From: an uncultured Verrucomicrobiae bacterium
Lineage (GTDB): Bacteria; Verrucomicrobiota; Verrucomicrobiia; Limisphaerales; JAFGQR01
Assembly (NCBI GenBank): GCA_963788655.1
Contig: CAWBHS010000017.1
Span: 1-64,000, forward strand
Direction of reading: 5' to 3'
DNA: 64,000 nt
Shown here: positions 1 through 40,847 of the stretch, one piece after another
Layout of the letters: every line of letters starts with the position of its first letter
How positions within the stretch are numbered: the stretch's first letter is position 1
The notes under the pieces: generated by a model
Told to the model about the DNA's origin: nothing
Databases searched by the model: none
Seen by the model: the letters and a program-made list of their open reading frames with translations, nothing else
Program-made: the position numbers and the translations under genes

Positions 1-2400
1 TTTTGAGAACGTGCCCAAGAACGCCCTCGACGTCGCGTTATGGATGGAGTCCGACCGCATGGGCTATATGCTGGGCGCCATCGACCAGGCCAGGCTCGAT
101 GAGCAACGCGGCGTGGTGCAAAACGAGAAACGCCAGGGCGAGAACCAGCCCTACGGCCTGGTAAACCAGTTGATCACAAAAGGCACCGCCCCGGTCGGGC
201 ATCCGTATTCGTGGACGGTCATCGGTTCCATGGAAGACCTGAACGCCGCTTCGCTGGACGACGTGCATAAATGGTTCAAAACCTATTACGGCGCCGCCAA
301 CGCCATGCTGGTGATTGCCGGCGACATCGAAACCGCGCGACGCCATCGAAGGCCAAGAAGTATTTCGGCGATATTCCCTCCGGCCCGCCGGTCACCAAGT
401 TCGAAGCATGGATTCCCAAGATGACCGGCACCCGGCGCGAGATCACGCAGGACCGCGTTCCCCAGGCGCGGATTTACAAGGTCTGGAACATCCCGCCCTA
501 CGGCGCGGCGGACACGACGTATCTCGATTTGCTCAGCGACGTGCTGGCTTCGGGCAAAACCTCGCGCCTCTACAAACGCCTCGTTTATGACGACCAGATC
601 GCCACCGACGTCTCCGGCCTTCGTCGATCCTCGAGGAAATCGGCGGCCAATTCGGCATCGTCGCCACCGCGCGGCCGGGCGGCGACTTGAAGGCAGTCGA
701 GAAAGCCATCGACGAGGAACTGGCCCGCCTGCTGGAGAAGGGCCCCACGCCGGAAGAAATGCAACGGGTCAAAACGCAATACTTCGCCCGGTTCATCCGC
801 GGCATCGAACGCATCGGCGGCTTCGGTGGCAAGTCCGACATCCTGGCCATGAACCAGACTTACAAGGGCAGTCCCGACTACTACAAAACGATCCTGCACA
901 ACGTCGAAGCCGCCACTGCGACGAACCTCCGCGACGCCGGTCGCAAATGGCTGGGCGATGGCGTTTATATTCTCGAAGTCCATCCGTTCCCCGAATATCA
1001 AACCGCCCAAACCCACGTGGACCGTTCGAAGTTGCCGACGCCCGGATCGACACCGGAAGTGAAATTCCCCGAACTCCAGCGCACCCAACTCGCCAACGGC
1101 CTGAAGATCATCCTGGCCGAACGCCACGCCGTGCCCGTGGTCAATTTCAATCTCCAGGTCAACGCCGGTTATGCCGCCGACCAGTTCGCCCGGCCGGGCA
1201 CCGCGCGGCTCGCCATGGACATGTTGGACGAAGGCACGAAAAGCCGGACGGCCCTCCAAATCAGTGAACAACTTGGATTGCTCGGCGCCGACCTGGGGAC
1301 TGGTTCGGATCTGGATACGTCCACCGTTTCGCTGTCGGCCCTGAAAGCCAACCTCGACCCCGTCCCTCGATATTTTCGCTGATGTCGTTCTTGAACCCAT
1401 CCTTCCCGGAGGCTGAATTCAAACGGCTCCAAACGCAGCGACTGGCCGAAATCCAAGCGTGAAATGACCGAGCCCCGGGCCATGGCCATGCGCGTGTTGC
1501 CCCGTTTGCTCTACGGACCAGACCATGCCTACGCGAGTCCGTTCACCGGCTCGGGCACCGAAGCTGCCGTCGCGACCATGACGCCCGCCGACATGGCGAA
1601 ATTCCACCAAACTTGGTTCAAGCCCAACAACGCCACCCTGATCGTCGTTGGCGATACGACGCTAAAGGAAATCGTGCCGCAGTTGGAACAACGGTTCGCG
1701 GCCTGGAAAGCCGGCGACGTGCCGCACAAAAACATTGGTCCCGCACCGCAACCGGAGAAACCCGCCGTCTATCTCATCGACCGACCCGGCTCCATTCAAT
1801 CGGTGGTCGTTGCCGCCGATCTCGCGCCGCCGACCGGTGGGAAACACGAAGTGGCCATTGAAACGATGAACAGCATTCTCGGCGGCACCTTCACCTCGCG
1901 GCTCAACATGAACCTGCGCGAGGACAAGCATTGGACCTATGGCGCCCGCACGATGCTTTACGATGCCCGCGGACCGCGCCCGTTCATTGCCTACGCTCCA
2001 GTCCAGACGGACAAAACCAAGGAAGCCACCGCCGAAATGGACAAGGAACTCAACGGCATCCTGGGGAAACGTTCGGTCACCGATGACGAATTGAACAAAG
2101 CCAAGAAGAACGAAACCTTGACGCTGCCCGGCCGTTGGGAAACCAGTCGCGTGGTCGCAAGGTCCATCGCGGAAATGGTGCAATTCGATCTGCCCGACAA
2201 TTACTTTGAAACCTATCCCGGCAAAGGTACAGTCGCTGAACCAGGCCGAAGTCGAACAGGCCGCTAAAACTGTCGTTCATCCCCAGCGCCTCGTTTGGCT
2301 GGTGGTCGGCGACCGCTCCAAAATCGAATCCGGACTCCGCGACCTGGGCCTGGGCCAGATGCGCGTGATCGACGCCGCGGGCAAGCCGGTGGGCGACTGA
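1..2400 (+). CDS. M16 family zinc metalloprotease (insulinase/PqqL-like, four-domain), 5'-partial, split by about 5 frameshifts
   Basis: Consecutive ORFs 11-424, 271-690, 687-1382, 1464-2267 and 2206-2400 carry M16 motifs (LWMESDRM, VVQNEKRQ, HPYSW..IG, LANGLKIILAE, LGGTFTSRLNMNLREDKHWTYG). Confidence 0.9.
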
Positions 2401-2570
2401 GCGGGACACTTGGGCAAAATCCATTTTACCACGAACGCCGGCGGTCCCATAAGCCGCCGGCGAGCAATACCGGCAATGGTGCATGCAGACATCGCTTTGG
2501 CCTGGTTGAATCGATTGAATCATATCAATCTGGATAAGATGTTAACGCACCTCGTTTTAACGTCCCTGGC

Positions 2571-2759
2571 ATGAGCCAGCGGTATCGCATTCTGGCGTTG
2601 GTGGCTTTGGCCGGGTTCGGGATTTGGTTTTTTGTCCTGCGTTGGCCCCGGCGCGACTACGCCAATTTTCCACCGACGGTCGCGGGTCCGTGGGTGGCGT
2701 TCGGCGTGCATGCTCGGTGCCCGGCATTGGCGCTGGACAGGCCGCCGGCAATTCGCTAG
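2571..2759 (+). pseudogene. N-terminal fragment of a membrane-anchored GDSL/SGNH arylesterase-like protein
   Basis: N-terminal TM helix followed by YANFPPTVAGPWVAFG. The sequence breaks off where the GDS(L) motif is expected (about 2706). Confidence 0.45.
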
Positions 2760-2789
2760 GAACAGCAGCGTTAGCCGCGTCGAAACGCA

Positions 2790-3500
2790 ATGAACGACAG
2801 CCAACATTGGGAGCGCTTGAAAAGCCTGCTGGCCAGGCAGGCGGCGGGCGAGTTGTACGTGTGTGTGGAAGACCTCGTCCGCAACGGACTCGACTTGACG
2901 CGCTTCGCCGAAAACGAATTCCGACCGTGCCGTCAGGATGTGACGCAGTACCTGGCCGCCTGGGGTCGGCATGCCGGCTTCCCGCAGGAAGCTTGCTGCG
3001 AGTGGCTGACGGATTATTGCCTCGACATGCTGTCGGCCATTTCCAGGTCCAGCGGTTCGAGAATCCGGCACAGCACCAAGTCCAACGTCAAATACATCTA
3101 TGGTTCGGCGGTTCCGTTTTTGTGCGACTGCGAGGAGAATCCCTTCCACGCGCGGTGCCGCAGCGAGTGTCCGTTGCACGCCGAGATGAAAGTCAAATCC
3201 GCCGAACGAAAGGCGCTGGCGCTCCAACCCTACCAAGTCATCGAACGCCCGCCGCCGGTGGTCCTGCCCGAATACGTCCCGATCAAGAAACAGCATCGCG
3301 AGCAATTTGAAAAAGCGTGCCAGGTCATCCGGGAGTTGCTGGCGCAGAAACTCAAACTCAAGGCAATCGTGGACAAGTTGAACGCGGACGGATTCAAGAC
3401 CCGCACCGGCCGGAAATGGACTGGCGCGACCTTGAGTCGGGAAGTACGAGAATTGCCGAAGCAGCCGAAGGAGGACAACGGAGCGCAATCCGGGCAGTGA
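2790..3500 (+). CDS. Hypothetical protein with Cys-rich segment and C-terminal recombinase-type DNA-binding motif
   Basis: 236 aa. CDCEENPFHARCRSEC cluster; C-terminal LKAIVDKLNADGFKTRTGRKWTGATLSRE resembles the serine-recombinase Recombinase domain helix-turn motif. Confidence 0.65.
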   Translation: MNDSQHWERLKSLLARQAAGELYVCVEDLVRNGLDLTRFAENEFRPCRQDVTQYLAAWGRHAGFPQEACCEWLTDYCLDMLSAISRSSGSRIRHSTKSNVKYIYGSAVPFLCDCEENPFHARCRSECPLHAEMKVKSAERKALALQPYQVIERPPPVVLPEYVPIKKQHREQFEKACQVIRELLAQKLKLKAIVDKLNADGFKTRTGRKWTGATLSREVRELPKQPKEDNGAQSGQ

Positions 3501-3635
3501 GGGGCGAGGAGGGCAGGCGGCGGGACAAGTTGCGTCACCTTGTAGAAGATCGCAGACATTTCCGTCCGCCCGCATGTGAACGGGACTCCGAAAGCGAGCA
3601 ACCCCGGTCCAAGCCGGAACGATTCAGTCAAAAAG

Positions 3636-3782
3636 GGGAGCGCGCCCGCCCCGGGCGCCGTGGTTGGCGCCTCGCCAACCACTTTCGAGGATCCCAAGAG
3701 ATTCACTATTTAGTGGCTGCTCAGTCGCGTTGCCAACCGGCGAGAGCGCCGGTTGGCAACGCCCGAAGCGGGCGCGCTCCCC
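3636..3782. repeat. REP/MITE-like long imperfect palindrome
   Basis: GGGAGCGCGCCCGC...GCGGGCGCGCTCCC outer arms, each with an internal hairpin (GGTTGGCG/CGCCAACC, GTTGCCAACCGGCG/CGCCGGTTGGCAAC). Confidence 0.7.
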
Positions 3783-3941
3783 CAAACACAATTGCATCGA
3801 TACGGCTGAGGCCCCGCTTTCGCCGTGCGAGCGGACTGGAATGTCCGCGCTCCGTCAAAACAGGGATGCAGCCTGCAAGAGATCGCTTTTTGTGCGGACC
3901 GGCTTGACACTTGTACAAGCCTGGGCAAGCTCTGCCAGACT

Positions 3942-36878: not shown

Positions 36879-37038
36879 CGCCCCCACGTTTACCAGTCAT
36901 GCCGGAAACAGGCGAGTGTGAATCTGAAAATGCCGGCCGCCGCTCCTCTCCGTCGCGGTGGATGGGATGGATAGGGTGCCGGTTCGGACGCTGCTAACCT
37001 GAATAATTGTCACCCCAGGCTTAGCACGCCGACAGCCT

Positions 37039-37100
37039 GTAGCCGCCGACGTGAGGAGGCGACGCGCTGGAAGTGGCCCCGGTTCCGCCTCCTGAGTTCG
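37039..37100. repeat. REP element (degenerate right arm)
   Basis: GTAGCCGCCGACGTGAGGAGGCG ... CCGCCTCCT. Confidence 0.65.
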
Positions 37101-37189
37101 CTCCTTTTTTGGTGCCGAAAGTGTAGCTTATGCCGAGGACTAATCAGTAGGATCAGTGTGGTCGTATTCATAGGCGTTTGGCTGCCGCT

Positions 37190-37429
37190 GCACCGGGTAG
37201 GGGTGAGCGGTCGCCCGCTTTGCTCCTGCAAATCCCACCACTTCCAATGGCCGTCTGCGTTAAGCTCCCAAACAAGCTTCCGCTCGCGGCAATGCCACGT
37301 GCCAGCCATCGACGCCATCGAATTCGCCGAGGATGGAGAAATGGCGAGGGCGGCTGGCTCCTCTGTCGTGTGAGGCGTGGCACAACCGCACAGAAGCACT
37401 GCAAGGAAATACGATGCGATGCATTTCAT
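37190..37429 (-). pseudogene. Last (apparently truncated) cassette gene: small lipoprotein
   Basis: Lipobox MKCIASYFLAVLLCG-C; MAGTWHC..LVWELNADGHWKW lipocalin-like start. ATG lies 18 nt after the intron 3' end. No downstream attC found; breakpoint approximate. Confidence 0.55.
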
Positions 37430-37446
37430 GGCGCGTGCAAAGTGGG

Positions 37447-38263
37447 ACCGGGTAGGCGTAGGCGGTCACCCGCCCACGCCCCCCTAAGAACCGGACTTGA
37501 AAGTTTCCCTTCATCACGGCTCAAGCCTCTCCAAGGCCACCCCGGATGCGGGGGACCCGCGTAACCAGGAGGCCGGTGACACCCAAAGGCGTCATGGACC
37601 TTCCCAATCCCACTTGGCAATACCGGTCGGCGGCCATATCGCGCCCGGCTCCTTTGGGCCGCAGCACCGAGAGGCACCAAGCGACGGGCGTCGCTCGTCC
37701 TATGCTTCTCTCGCTTGAAGGGGTTCCGCTGATTTTCTTGCCAGGAGACACCAGATCGACGTGGGCATATCCGGTCCATTACCGACCGGCCTTGGCTTGT
37801 TCGATCCTCTTCATGCTGCCTCCCCTGGGCCTGCCTTGCGGTCGGCTTGCCTGGATACTCTCCAGGCGGGAACTGGCAGCTTTTCCATGTTCCGCATTCT
37901 CCACAGGATGGGTTAGGTCCACTCTGTACACCGGCGGTGCGCCATTCGCGTCGGGCTACGTTAGACAGCCCGAACTTGACCGCTGGCCTTCTTTTGGCCG
38001 GAGCCTTAAAACAGCCTCGTATGGCTCGTTCCTCTGACGATGCTTGCGAGTGTTCACGTGGGTTGACCCTACCATCCAATTCTAGCGCCGCACCCGGATT
38101 GAGGCTCCCAGGCTGGCTACATTGTCGGGAAGGCTTCACACCCTGGACAGTAGCCTTACGGCCGCCCGCCCAACGCATGCTTCCCTGGAATACCTGCCGC
38201 GAAAGGCAGGACTGAGTCAGGTTGCCCATGCTCAGCAGTGATGAATGCGACTTCATGTCACAA
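37447..38263 (-). mobile_element. ORF-less group II intron (817 nt) inserted in attC core site
   Basis: 5' end TTGTGACATG; domain V GAGCCGTGATGAAGGGAAACTTTCAAGTCCGGTTC (37522-37488) with AGC triad and GAAA loop; domain VI with bulged A at -7 ending CCTACCCGGT; EBS1 hairpin at 37973-37951; no RT ORF. Confidence 0.9.
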
Positions 38264-38384
38264 CCAACGCCGAGGTGAGCGAGGGCTGCCGGCAGCGCCC
38301 GCTCGACTGTGAAGAAAACGGTGGAAGAACCCGGTGCTCCCGCTGCCAGACGGGGCAGCCCTTCGCTCTACCGACTGGTTGGGC
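38264..38384 (-). mobile_element. attC site 1 (R' box interrupted by the intron)
   Basis: Top strand GCCCAAC...GTTGG. Bottom-strand hairpin GGT/ACC, GAGCGA/TCGCTC, GGGCTGCC/GGCAGCCC with two extrahelical T. Confidence 0.85.
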
Positions 38385-39006: not shown

Positions 39007-39102
39007 GCCCAACGCCGAGATCACCCATGAGCGGCATCCCAATACCGCTCAAATTCTAAACCGACGTGCTTGCCGCTCATTGGGTGAATCGATTGGTTCG
39101 GA
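39007..39102 (-). mobile_element. attC site 2
   Basis: R'' TCCGAAC, R' GTTGGGC (complement of attC1 R''); stem TCACCCA/TGGGTGA and TGAGCGGCA/TGCCGCTCA with extrahelical A and T. Confidence 0.88.
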
Positions 39103-39436: not shown

Positions 39437-39563
39437 TCCGAACAACCAAGCTCACCGATCCGCGCCGGGCGGGACGGTCGAGCGTGAAAGAAACGATGGA
39501 AAAACCAACTGAGCAACGAGCGGAGGATCGGGGCGCGGATTCGTGTGCAGCGCTTGGTTCGGC
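39437..39563 (-). mobile_element. attC site 3
   Basis: R'' GCCGAAC, R' GTTCGGA (complement of attC2 R''); stem GCT/AGC, CACCGA/TCG(T)GTG, TCCGCGCC/GGCGCGGA. Confidence 0.85.
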
Positions 39564-39834
39564 GTTTGATGAGATAGCTGTGGACGCTGCTCTAAGACGG
39601 ATAAGGGCAACCCAAAACGTCGAAGACCAGACCGGTCGCTACAAATACCCAGACTGCGCAGATGTGCTGGCCGCAGAAGTCGAACGCCTGCGATCTGTCT
39701 CCGAAAAGCAGCAGTGGCGGATAACCAGCCTACAACAAGACATGCGCACGATAATGGACGTTACTCGATGGGAACACCAAGCGCACCAGATCGCCAAGCG
39801 CGCTCTGACGCCGAACAACCAAGCTGAGCGATGA
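39496..39834 (+). CDS. Reverse-oriented cassette gene: phage-like hypothetical protein
   Basis: Starts inside attC3 (ATG 39496 or GTG 39484); LAAEVERLR coiled-coil motif; stops inside attC4, overlapping the next ATG. Confidence 0.65.
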   Translation: MEKPTEQRAEDRGADSCAALGSAFDEIAVDAALRRIRATQNVEDQTGRYKYPDCADVLAAEVERLRSVSEKQQWRITSLQQDMRTIMDVTRWEHQAHQIAKRALTPNNQAER

Positions 39835-39907
39835 GTGCCCCATCCCAAACTCCCGAACTGCCAATCAGCGTGGCGGGGCACTCATTCGCTCCAGCGCCTG
39901 GTTCGGC
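39810..39907 (-). mobile_element. attC site 4
   Basis: R'' GCCGAAC, R' GTTCGGC; stem GCTG/CAGC, AGCGA/TCGCT, TGAGTGCCCC/GGGGCACTCA with extrahelical C and T. Confidence 0.9.
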
Positions 39908-40493
39908 GTTCAGGTGTGTGATGGCCGACCCGCCGTGGCAACTGACGATGCGCGGCAAACGCAAGCGCGCCAAAGAGCCAAACCTGCCGGAATCGCTACC
40001 GTATACGACGATGACTCTGGACGAAATCTGCGCTCTGCCAGTCGGTGAACTCTGTGCTGATGACTGCCACTTGTGGCTGTGGACTACCAACCAACACCTG
40101 AGAGACGGCTTTCGGGTAATGGAGGCGTGGGGCTTCCGGTATCTCGCGCCCGTCCACTGGATAAAACCGAGCGGCGTCGGCAACTGGTTCGTCCACCGCA
40201 CGCAGACAATACTGATGGGATACAAGACCCGATGCCGCTTCGAGCGCGCCCGCTACCGGCCAAACATCGTGACGACTGGCGACCCGAAGCGGCACAGCGA
40301 GAAGCCGGAGGAAACATACGCGCTCATCGAATCTGTGAGCAGCGAGCCACGGCTGGAAATGTTCGCACGCCGGAAGCGTCCCGGCTGGCAGTCCTGGGGC
40401 AACGAAGTCACCAGCGACGTGATACTGACGCCGAACGTGGAGGTCACCGACCGGCAGAAAACCAGAAAGGAAACGGATGCCAAACAAACATGA
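39831..40493 (+). CDS. Reverse-oriented cassette gene: MT-A70 family N6-adenine methyltransferase
   Basis: MADPPW catalytic motif, YTTMTLDEICALPV, CHLWLWTTN, HSEKPE, LEMFARRKRPGWQSWGNE. Confidence 0.92.
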   Translation: MSAPSQTPELPISVAGHSFAPAPGSAFRCVMADPPWQLTMRGKRKRAKEPNLPESLPYTTMTLDEICALPVGELCADDCHLWLWTTNQHLRDGFRVMEAWGFRYLAPVHWIKPSGVGNWFVHRTQTILMGYKTRCRFERARYRPNIVTTGDPKRHSEKPEETYALIESVSSEPRLEMFARRKRPGWQSWGNEVTSDVILTPNVEVTDRQKTRKETDAKQT

Positions 40494-40538: not shown

Positions 40539-40845
40539 GATCCCGGCCCCGTGGGGTGGCATGGAATGGAAACATGCCTTGATGGCTCGAAACCTAATGT
40601 CATCCCGAAAATGGATATGCCGGACCGAGTGGGGGCGTGAATTTGTTATTGCGTTCAAAGAACCGGGTCCAATTGCGCTACTCTGCATTGAGGATCGGCT
40701 GTGGCCAGTTAAGCCGTATTCACCGAACGTCCCGGATCACCGACCGCCGCCGGAAACGGGCGCTGGCAGCGAATCCAGCGTCCAAAGTATGCGGTGCGTC
40801 CTAACCGAAGTGCGGGGCGGCGGTTCGAGTGAATCCGATTGTTAG
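40477..40845 (+). CDS. Reverse-oriented cassette gene: hypothetical protein
   Basis: RBS AGAAAGGAAAC and ATG inside the attC5 loop; stop TAG within GTTAGCC of attC6. Confidence 0.55.
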   Translation: MPNKHETDTQAAGSREPIGSVIPAPWGGMEWKHALMARNLMSSRKWICRTEWGREFVIAFKEPGPIALLCIEDRLWPVKPYSPNVPDHRPPPETGAGSESSVQSMRCVLTEVRGGGSSESDC

Positions 40846-40847
40846 CC
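40722..40847 (-). mobile_element. attC site 6
   Basis: R'' GGCTAAC, R' GTTCGGT (complement of attC5 R''); stem GGA/TCC, TCACCGA/TCG(A)GTGA, CCGCCGCC/GGCGGCGG-like. Confidence 0.85.

Follow-up and report, generated by a model that had tools for sequence, protein, structure and literature searches.

Integrons are the main gene-capture system of bacteria. To our knowledge, no intron lineage but the group II introns called IIC-attC is widely known to insert into them; these introns do so backwards and by recognising structure. Here we analyse a group II intron of 817 nucleotides (nt) that occupies an attC site in the orientation of the cassettes and has no open reading frame (ORF) for a reverse transcriptase (RT). 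It lies in a 64,000-nt stretch of DNA from an uncultured Verrucomicrobiae bacterium (positions 1 to 64,000 of GenBank contig CAWBHS010000017.1, assembly GCA_963788655.1). This whole stretch is called the window and its contig C17; the assembly has 8.96 Mb in 115 contigs and is 86% complete with 5.6% contamination.

According to the sections of PMC7923331 that deal with them, IIC-attC introns (S.ma.I2 and its relatives) enter the bottom strand of attC at R'' (TTGT/T), antisense to the cassettes, and have a first intron-binding site (IBS1) of 3-4 base pairs, no second exon-binding site (EBS2), a compact class C ribozyme and a CGC triad; further accounts of these introns are contained in parts of PMC4424553 and PMC3001079. 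A sense-oriented intron in an Enterobacter cloacae integron, cited in the same sections of PMC7923331, was reported as class C. The closest described system is UHB.I2 (Sonbol and Siam 2021, Mob DNA 12:8), characterised in that paper as an IIB1 intron with a CL1-class RT without endonuclease and known as a single copy from the metagenome contig LFIK01005957; it has the orientation of the cassettes, adjoins the end of an attC site and has the termini 5'-UUGCG...GU-3' (PMC7923331). In the sections on UHB.I2 its authors describe exon conservation as poor and do not link EBS1 to the R' core, and their Discussion raises the idea of structural attC recognition (PMC7923331). Our search, outside which most subscription journals lay, found no report of IIB introns in integrons besides PMC7923331. 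ORF-less group II introns of bacteria are described in parts of PMC4424553 as rare and short-lived and as occurring beside related RT-encoding introns; cyanobacterial examples are served in trans by a related RT (PMC4424553).

A group II intron in the R' core of attC

The element in the window is a real group II intron whose RT gene has been lost. We read it, with a probability of roughly 0.8, as a non-autonomous internal-deletion derivative of an endonuclease-less intron family of IIB type (chloroplast-like in appearance) that homes into the R' core of attC on the sense strand of the cassettes. An earlier note on this DNA, made from the letters alone, had described an 817-nt element on the minus strand with the 5' end TTGTG, with domains V and VI and without an RT ORF; the extent, the strand and the 5' end are all borne out by the sequence (feature coordinates are collected in Table 1, and a slash marks a junction). 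On the minus strand the intron starts at 38263 (...cGTTGG/TTGTGACATG...) and ends at 37447 (...CCTACCCGGT/CCCAC), and the reading through the whole insertion is ...ctcgctcacctcggcGTTGG/TTGTGACATGAAG...CCTACCCGGT/CCCACtttgcacgcgccATG.

A covariance model search of the Rfam type, as suggested by the earlier note, gave two matches above the gathering threshold in the whole 64-kb window, and both are the intron, on the minus strand: group-II-D1D4-7 (RF02012) matches domain I at 38086-38211 with 62 bits (cut-off 34), and Intron_gpII (RF00029, domains V and VI) matches at 37447-37524 with 49.6 bits (cut-off 40). The centroid fold predicted for the isolated 817 nt has exactly six top-level helices, and the folding z-score of the intron is -3.9; domains V and VI are thus found both by RF00029 and in the predicted six-domain fold. 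Domain V begins with GAGCCGU in the Rfam Intron_gpII alignment, that is, with an AGC triad, and domain VI has a predicted bulged A at 37453 (intron nt 811, the seventh from the 3' end), while domains I-III span about 510 nt of the fold. In domain IV, alignment with RT-encoding copies from the same genome shows that the RT gene is deleted and a degenerate piece of its start is kept. A Pfam scan found no RT ORF in the intron, as the earlier note had claimed; the sole long frame, at 37426-38256, encodes 276 amino acids (aa) and has no Pfam family.

The termini UUGUG...GU deviate from the consensus GUGYG...AY. In group II introns the first nucleotide is in contact with the penultimate one, and the covariation of these two positions among relatives of the intron fits this contact: in the 32 relatives with both ends assigned, the pair is G/A in 24, U/G in seven and C/G in one, without exception, so that all 24 introns starting with G have a penultimate A and all eight others have a penultimate G. 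The pairing of U1 with a penultimate G across relatives suggests that the termini are working ones, and it provides a clean natural test of the terminal contact in the ribozyme. Within the attC-targeting clade described below, the first two intron nucleotides vary (GU, UU, UC, GC and CU).

The flank that forms the 5' exon, 38264-38384, is a canonical attC with a constrained DNA fold of -26.9 kcal/mol and 21 arm-to-arm pairs. It scores 107.3 bits with an attC covariance model made from 11 aligned sites, itself included (nine intron-bearing sites and two others from the window), with a 20-pair structure and two bulges. Genome-wide, this model gave at least 102 hits with E <= 0.01, the census being a lower bound, as scoring covered only 150 of 9207 candidates. 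These hits form arrays with one strand each, and the intron has the strand of the attC hits in every array, which places it on the sense (top) strand of the cassettes. Integron integrases (TIGR02249, above cut-off) were found in three places, C59:66134-67021, C49:288364-289293 and C69:40024-40947; in C49 the integrase is on the minus and the array on the plus strand, and in C59 the integrase is on the plus and the array on the minus strand, which is the usual divergent layout. The insertion point lies inside R', 4 nt past the G/TT crossover. The position and strand proposed earlier, inside R' on the top strand and 4 nt past the crossover, therefore hold, given the strand of all attC hits in the arrays and the two arrays in which this strand reads away from a divergent intI.

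The earlier note had also suggested inspecting the sites of other copies. Among 13 intron 5' ends in the genome, nine follow CGTTAG, two CGTTGG and one GTTAGG, and one stands at the edge of a contig; each of the 12 visible 5' flanks terminates in GTT(A/G)G(G). Canonical attC folds of 94-124 nt were obtained for nine of ten flanks on this side: R'' RYYYAAC is followed by a 5' arm in which two single bases bulge out, by the 3' arm that matches it and by GTTAG, in agreement with the imperfect palindrome of R'' RYYYAAC and R' GTTRRRY that characterises attC. A distance of 5 nt separates the end of the attC hairpin from the insertion point downstream of it. At the other side, 11 intact 3' ends were found, each with a different flank. 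The cassette downstream of the C49 copy recurs without an intron at C59:2613-2908, with 95-97% identity and behind a different attC: the intron-free sequence is ...gattCGTTAG/cccgtgcgaacg..., and that with the intron is ...ctcggCGTTAG/intron/cccgtgcgtgcgaacg.... This paralogue fixes the 3' junction, and the comparison places the intron inside the cassette unit, 4 nt from the cassette 5' end (TTAG/intron/CCCGTG...).

Base pairing with the attC core and occupancy of attC sites

The hairpin at 37973-37951 with CUAACG had been proposed as EBS1, and its coordinates were confirmed. CUAACG pairs perfectly with cGUUAG and with one G-U pair with cGUUGG. In related introns the homologous loop was picked automatically as the strongest hairpin at the homologous place and compared with the last six exon nucleotides; this was done for 48 introns, 45 loci with enough upstream sequence and three copies from the genome itself. 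All six positions pair in 30 of the 48, while 1000 permutations of the exon-intron assignments gave a mean of 2.5 and a maximum of 8 such introns (examples of exon and loop are CGATAA and UUAUCG, GTACGC and GCGUAC, and CTGTCC and GGACAG); in several of the 18 non-matching introns the automatic pick took the wrong hairpin. This loop-exon covariation across relatives identifies the loop as EBS1. A 6-nt EBS1 in a hairpin loop of domain I that pairs with the last six exon nucleotides is a trait of the IIB type, and it is present here.

The proposed targeting by base pairing to the attC core is supported by the occupancy of attC sites, which tracks the strength of the EBS1 pairing. Nine of 30 attC hits ending in CGTTAG are occupied, as compared to one of 24 ending in CGTTGG and none of 48 others, 23 of which end in CGTTCG; all ten occupied hits are among the 54 ending in CGTTRG (Fisher p = 0.0014 versus the rest), and these fractions are rough because nine of the ten occupied sites are in the training set of the model and a small part of the candidates (150 of 9207) was scored. 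The six nucleotides are not the whole specificity, since the genome contains 974 CGTTAG hexamers and all nine CGTTAG insertions are at attC ends. A property of attC, such as the hairpin, its single-strandedness or the L' arm, probably supplies the remaining specificity.

Other exon contacts are less clear-cut. Loops homologous to the candidate EBS2 loop AGAGGA pair with exon positions -13 to -8 in few relatives, as seen by a 6-mer complementarity search, and AGAGGA itself pairs with the exon over 4-5 nt in shifting registers. The first nucleotide of the 3' exon is G in all four RT-type copies and C in five or six of the seven ORF-less copies; after free CGTTRG sites it is G in 22 cases, C in 18 and A in four, numbers too small for a test. 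No change of EBS3 was found among the fixed differences between ORF-less and RT-type copies.

Copies in the genome and RT-encoding forms

A DNA search of the genome identified seven full-length ORF-less copies with 98-100% identity (C17, C80, C93, C49, two in C59, and C9), which vary at 15 of 817 positions. Three copies of about 2209 nt (C99, C44 and C46) encode an RT and have 89-91% identity in nt 1-568 and 88% identity in the last 92 nt; a degenerate copy with 74% identity is located on C50, and intron fragments were found on C56, on C27 and at the end of C9. Together the copies are spread over at least ten contigs, always at the same insertion nucleotide. The RT gene, in domain IV, is a 505-codon open frame with YADD in C99 and C44, and the frames are broken in C46 and C50. 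The RT protein has the domains RVT_N, RVT_1 and GIIM and no HNH endonuclease.

With intact RT genes in the same genome, a cognate RT that could act in trans exists. The RT-encoding intron for which the earlier note had proposed to search was thus found, with open frames in C99 and C44, and the absence of an RT from the intron in the window, on which its non-autonomous status had been argued, is matched by RT-encoding relatives in the same genome with the same EBS1. ORF-less and RT-type copies have no fixed differences in nt 1-306, EBS1 included, and 65 in nt 307-600; this mosaic points to exchange between the two forms by recombination or gene conversion. The ORF-less derivative, with its several copies, is a rare bacterial example of a burst of a non-autonomous group II intron. 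Another arrangement was observed at C27:23212-23883, where a copy is truncated past intron nt 265 and followed by an unrelated ORF, and where, about 380 nt beyond the truncation, ...GTTCGTG is followed by 28 nt (nt 3-30) from the intron 5' end.

A related lineage at GTT-type targets

Relatives were fetched from public genomes by RT protein; the best 80 of 584 confirmed hits yielded 79 loci with 48-62% identity, and intron 5' ends were located in 52 of the 79. A tree of the RT proteins contains a 20-member clade (local support 95) that includes the intron analysed here; further boundaries in this clade were anchored with Rfam and by eye, and RF02012 matched in 18 of the 20 related loci scanned. 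The nearest relative in the tree, among the best 80 of 584 hits, comes from a Limisphaerales metagenome genome, with 62% identity and the target gagCGTTAG/TTGTG.

Fourteen of the 20 clade members have GTT-type targets, four are unreadable (the locus is cut or the 5' neighbour is another intron) and two have other targets. The EBS1 loops match the targets in most of the 14 GTT-type members: the targets seen are CGTTAG, CGTTGG, GTTAGG, CGTTCG, GTTCGC, GTTATG, CCGTTA, ACGTTA, CGTTAT, GTTG and one TTTAG, and the loops seen are CUAACG, GCGAAC, CGAACG, CAUAAC, UAACGG and UAACGU. The two members with unrelated targets, L026 and L028, fit their own EBS1 loops. Hairpins that resemble attC and are closed by AAC...GTT occur in 12 of 14 clade flanks examined (AAA...TTT in L051). 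According to the record titles, the hosts belong to Verrucomicrobiota, Thermodesulfobacteriota, Chlorobiota, Acidobacteriota and Bacteroidota. Among 60 relatives of the window's genome, matches were found in five, and the single genome of the same genus had none; a relative from the same order, with 76% identity, has cgttag/TTGTG and the loop UCUAACG.

One related locus, on a Desulfatiglandales chromosome (L087, about 811-3937), carries three group II introns head to tail. The first is represented by its 3' end, at 887; it is followed by a full copy (888-3112) and then by an ORF-less one of about 825 nt (3113-3937). This tandem points to several rounds of insertion into a target that keeps its 5' half.

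Further features of the window

Two of the additional attC sites of the array in the window, 39439-39563 and 39812-39907, are absent from the training set of the attC model. The cassette downstream of the intron contains an ORF of 139 aa at 37010-37429, which by eye has a start resembling a lipoprotein signal (MKCIASYFLAVLLCGC) and for which no Pfam family was found. The first ~17 nt of the 3' exon, 37430-37446 (cccactttgcacgcgccATG), resemble L029:3153-3170 (cccactgcgcacgccATG) of Limisphaerales; the ORFs that follow the window copy and L029, its closest relative, are not homologous (local score 22). The attC array also contains an ORF of an MT-A70 family methyltransferase (39831-40493, plus strand; Pfam E = 4.4e-31), which runs opposite to the top strand of attC.

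Table 1. Coordinates of the intron, its parts and its surroundings in the window.
Feature	Position	Strand	Details and basis
ORF-less group II intron	37447..38263	minus	817 nt, 5' UUGUG...GU 3'; sequence, Rfam, seven genomic copies
Domain I (predicted)	37886..38257	minus	intron nt 7-378; centroid fold and Rfam D1D4-7 match
Domain II (predicted)	37815..37880	minus	intron nt 384-449; centroid fold
Domain III (predicted)	37753..37807	minus	intron nt 457-511; centroid fold
Domain IV remnant	37524..37752	minus	intron nt 512-740; alignment with RT-encoding copies
Domain V	37488..37522	minus	intron nt 742-776; Rfam alignment and fold
Domain VI	37450..37484	minus	intron nt 780-814; Rfam and fold
EBS1 hairpin	37951..37973	minus	intron nt 291-313; UCGGGCUG-UCUAACG-UAGCCCGA
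EBS1 CUAACG	37959-37964	minus	intron nt 300-305; loop reads U-CUAACG-U
IBS1 CGTTGG	38264..38269	minus	last 6 nt of 5' exon; one G-U pair with EBS1
Candidate EBS2 loop AGAGGA, role unsupported	38030..38035	minus	intron nt 229-234; position homologous to loops of relatives
attC site forming the 5' exon	38264..38384	minus	R'' GCCCAAC, L'' with two bulged bases, L', first 5 nt of R' GTTGG
Further attC sites of the array	39009-39102, 39439-39563, 39812-39907, 40724-40847	minus	attC model 50.9-75.3 bits
3' exon, downstream cassette	37010..37446	minus	begins CCCAC

Proposed explanation and alternatives

The distribution of the intron could be explained as follows. Transcription of an array would yield intron RNA, which would be folded and spliced with the help of RT/maturase supplied in trans from the full-length copies of about 90% identity. 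The resulting ribonucleoprotein (RNP) would reverse-splice into other attC sites at cGTTAG/, and priming of the complementary DNA would depend on replication or on single-stranded DNA, because the RT protein has no endonuclease. GC skew around the 13 copies, calculated as a test of the lagging-strand template, was positive in nine cases and negative in four, and at most 0.043 in size in all of them. As GTT is preserved by the insertion, which is located 4 nt within the downstream cassette, the integrase could still move the cassette together with the intron; such transport is structurally possible, and no case of it was seen in the genome.

Several observations weigh against this explanation. 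The C80 flank is a shorter hairpin, which ends in CGTTGG and has no AAC partner, and the target at C9:105880 is not among the attC model hits, in addition to the roughness of the occupancy fractions mentioned above. No EBS2-IBS2 signal was found, the longest pairing being 4.2 nt on average at ten occupied sites versus 4.4 nt at 44 free ones, and EBS3 was not located in the intron; the last nucleotide of the ORF-less copy in C9 is changed. The label IIB (CL1/IIB1) would follow from the features of the intron and its likeness to UHB.I2, and the RT tree is a FastTree tree of 77 RT proteins drawn from the best 80 of 584 hits. No TIGR02249 match was found on C17, and the array in the window is therefore a cluster of five attC sites without an integrase. 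The integrase genes of C49 and C59, which stand beside intron-bearing arrays, have one premature stop each; that of C69 is intact and located at a contig end. With no integrase on C17 and stops in two of the three genes, transcription from a Pc promoter is not established for the array in the window. No spliced junction, lariat or empty allele at the window site was seen. Contigs from public sequencing runs (X1, a DNA library, and X3, X5 and X6, RNA libraries) gave pieces 90-96% alike over the intron alone and no joints; these runs share at most 0.19 of the sampled words of the stretch, its unique flanks have no cover, and contigs cannot reveal splicing.

In the RNA library X5, a 420-nt contig about 98% alike to 38063-38271 leads from the 5' part of the intron into a different attC-like flank (...TCGCTCACCTCTGCGTTGG/). 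The same type of junction hence exists in an environmental sample, which is not evidence of transcription.

What carries the specificity may be debated. Target choice could be mainly structural, as in class C introns, with the RNP recognising the folded or single-stranded top strand of attC and EBS1 setting the exact cut; this possibility, which overlaps in part with homing by base pairing, we take seriously while holding it somewhat doubtful. It accounts well for the restriction of all nine CGTTAG insertions to attC ends among 974 hexamers and for the missing EBS2-IBS2 signal, even the lone target outside attC (C80) has the form of a hairpin that ends in CGTTGG, the flanks of 12 of 14 related introns are attC-like hairpins, and the same idea was raised for UHB.I2 in the Discussion of PMC7923331. 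By structure alone, however, one would not predict that occupancy tracks pairing among sites that are all attC hairpins (nine of 30 for CGTTAG, one of 24 for CGTTGG and none of 23 for CGTTCG), nor that EBS1 and exon covary across the family as in an ordinary IIB intron, nor that L026 and L028 are inserted at unrelated sequences matching their own EBS1 loops. It is unlikely, on the other hand, that the ORF-less copies are inert relics, no longer able to splice or to move, and owe their near-identity to a single past burst. No evidence of expression or splicing was obtained, the 5' terminus is off GUGYG, EBS2 pairing was not found, there are a truncated copy and small fragments (C27), and bacterial ORF-less introns are rare and short-lived in the part of PMC4424553 that treats them; but the seven copies differ at 15 of 817 positions, there is no damage to the AGC triad of domain V, the bulged A of domain VI or EBS1, U1 has its counterpart in a penultimate G, as in all eight relatives without G1, and two intact RT genes occur with the same EBS1.

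The remaining two alternatives have much less in their favour. Spread of the copies by integron or homologous recombination through cassette duplication, with the intron as a passive passenger, seems very improbable: the attC sites upstream of the intron in C17 and C49 are 89% identical, the 300-nt upstream flanks in C44 and C46 are 96% identical, and the intron lies within the cassette unit, so that carriage by the integrase is possible in principle, yet no downstream flank is shared by any two of the 11 intact 3' ends, the upstream attC sites are mostly different, the one cassette found twice has the intron in one place and lacks it in the other, and the copies on at least ten contigs are always at the same nucleotide. 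We give next to no credence to the idea that the stretch is a protein-coding cassette gene with the 276-aa frame as its product. The frame of the ATG at 38256 indeed runs without a stop from one end of the intron to the other (272 codons), the 23 stop trinucleotides all falling in the remaining two frames, and such a frame recurs in two of 5000 mononucleotide shuffles and in none of 5000 Markov simulations. Its product, however, has no Pfam family and is by eye arginine-rich and of low complexity, the frame is shut at codons 28, 83, 154 and 14 in the four RT-type copies, and RNA models account for the whole stretch; the open frame is probably due to chance. We retain homing of an RT-less IIB-type derivative into the attC core as the preferred explanation.

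Wider reading

Taken jointly, the results may point to a cross-phylum clade of endonuclease-less IIB introns that are specialised residents of integron cassette arrays, a reading in five parts which, as a whole, we consider quite conceivable and propose tentatively. In it, EBS1 would read the R' core of attC, and the attC hairpin or its single-stranded state would replace EBS2-IBS2. Insertion 4-6 nt inside the downstream cassette would let GTT and the crossover survive, and the integrase could carry the intron. The intron would be transcribed in sense with the cassettes and splice out; short ORF-less derivatives and tandem insertions would be spawned; and the identical repeats of 0.8-2.2 kb would be a substrate for homologous rearrangement of arrays. 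The altered termini, U1 and the penultimate G, would be a co-evolved variant of the contact between the first and penultimate nucleotides.

If this is true, a second, unrelated intron lineage inserts into attC forwards and by base pairing to its conserved core, which would make attC a recurrent niche for retroelements. It would also provide a IIB intron from nature whose target is very short, well defined and portable, which is of relevance to targetron design, and would add a repeat family able to reshuffle cassette arrays.

Comparison with known systems

The intron shares with IIC-attC introns, as far as the cited parts of PMC7923331 describe them, the lack of an endonuclease, the specialisation on attC and an attC hairpin upstream of the insertion point. 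It differs from them in lying on the sense strand at R' and in having a 6-nt EBS1, an AGC triad and large domains I-III. The earlier view that it is not an IIC-attC intron therefore stands, on the AGC triad, the 6-nt EBS1, the ~510 nt of domains I-III and the sense insertion at R'. The intron of the Enterobacter cloacae integron is class C in the citing passage, in contrast to the IIB type here.

Like the trans-served cyanobacterial introns in the corresponding part of PMC4424553, the intron has no RT gene and coexists with related RT-encoding introns in the same genome. The targets there are genes, whereas the target here is the recombination site of a mobile element, and action of the RT in trans would here be deduced from the coexistence of the two forms. 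The pattern fits the ORF-less introns described in that part of the paper, while the copy number is unusually high.

UHB.I2 is the closest to the intron analysed here. As described in PMC7923331, it resembles the present intron in its IIB type, its cassette-sense orientation at an attC end, its termini (UUGCG...GU versus UUGUG...GU) and its endonuclease-less RT, and from these features it may well belong to the same clade. UHB.I2 is one RT-encoding copy, whereas here seven ORF-less and three or four RT-type copies, an attC census and a clade-wide target are available. This precedent lowers the novelty assumed in the earlier note. The element belongs to a broader, barely described lineage of attC-homing IIB introns, of a kind that has appeared in print once before.

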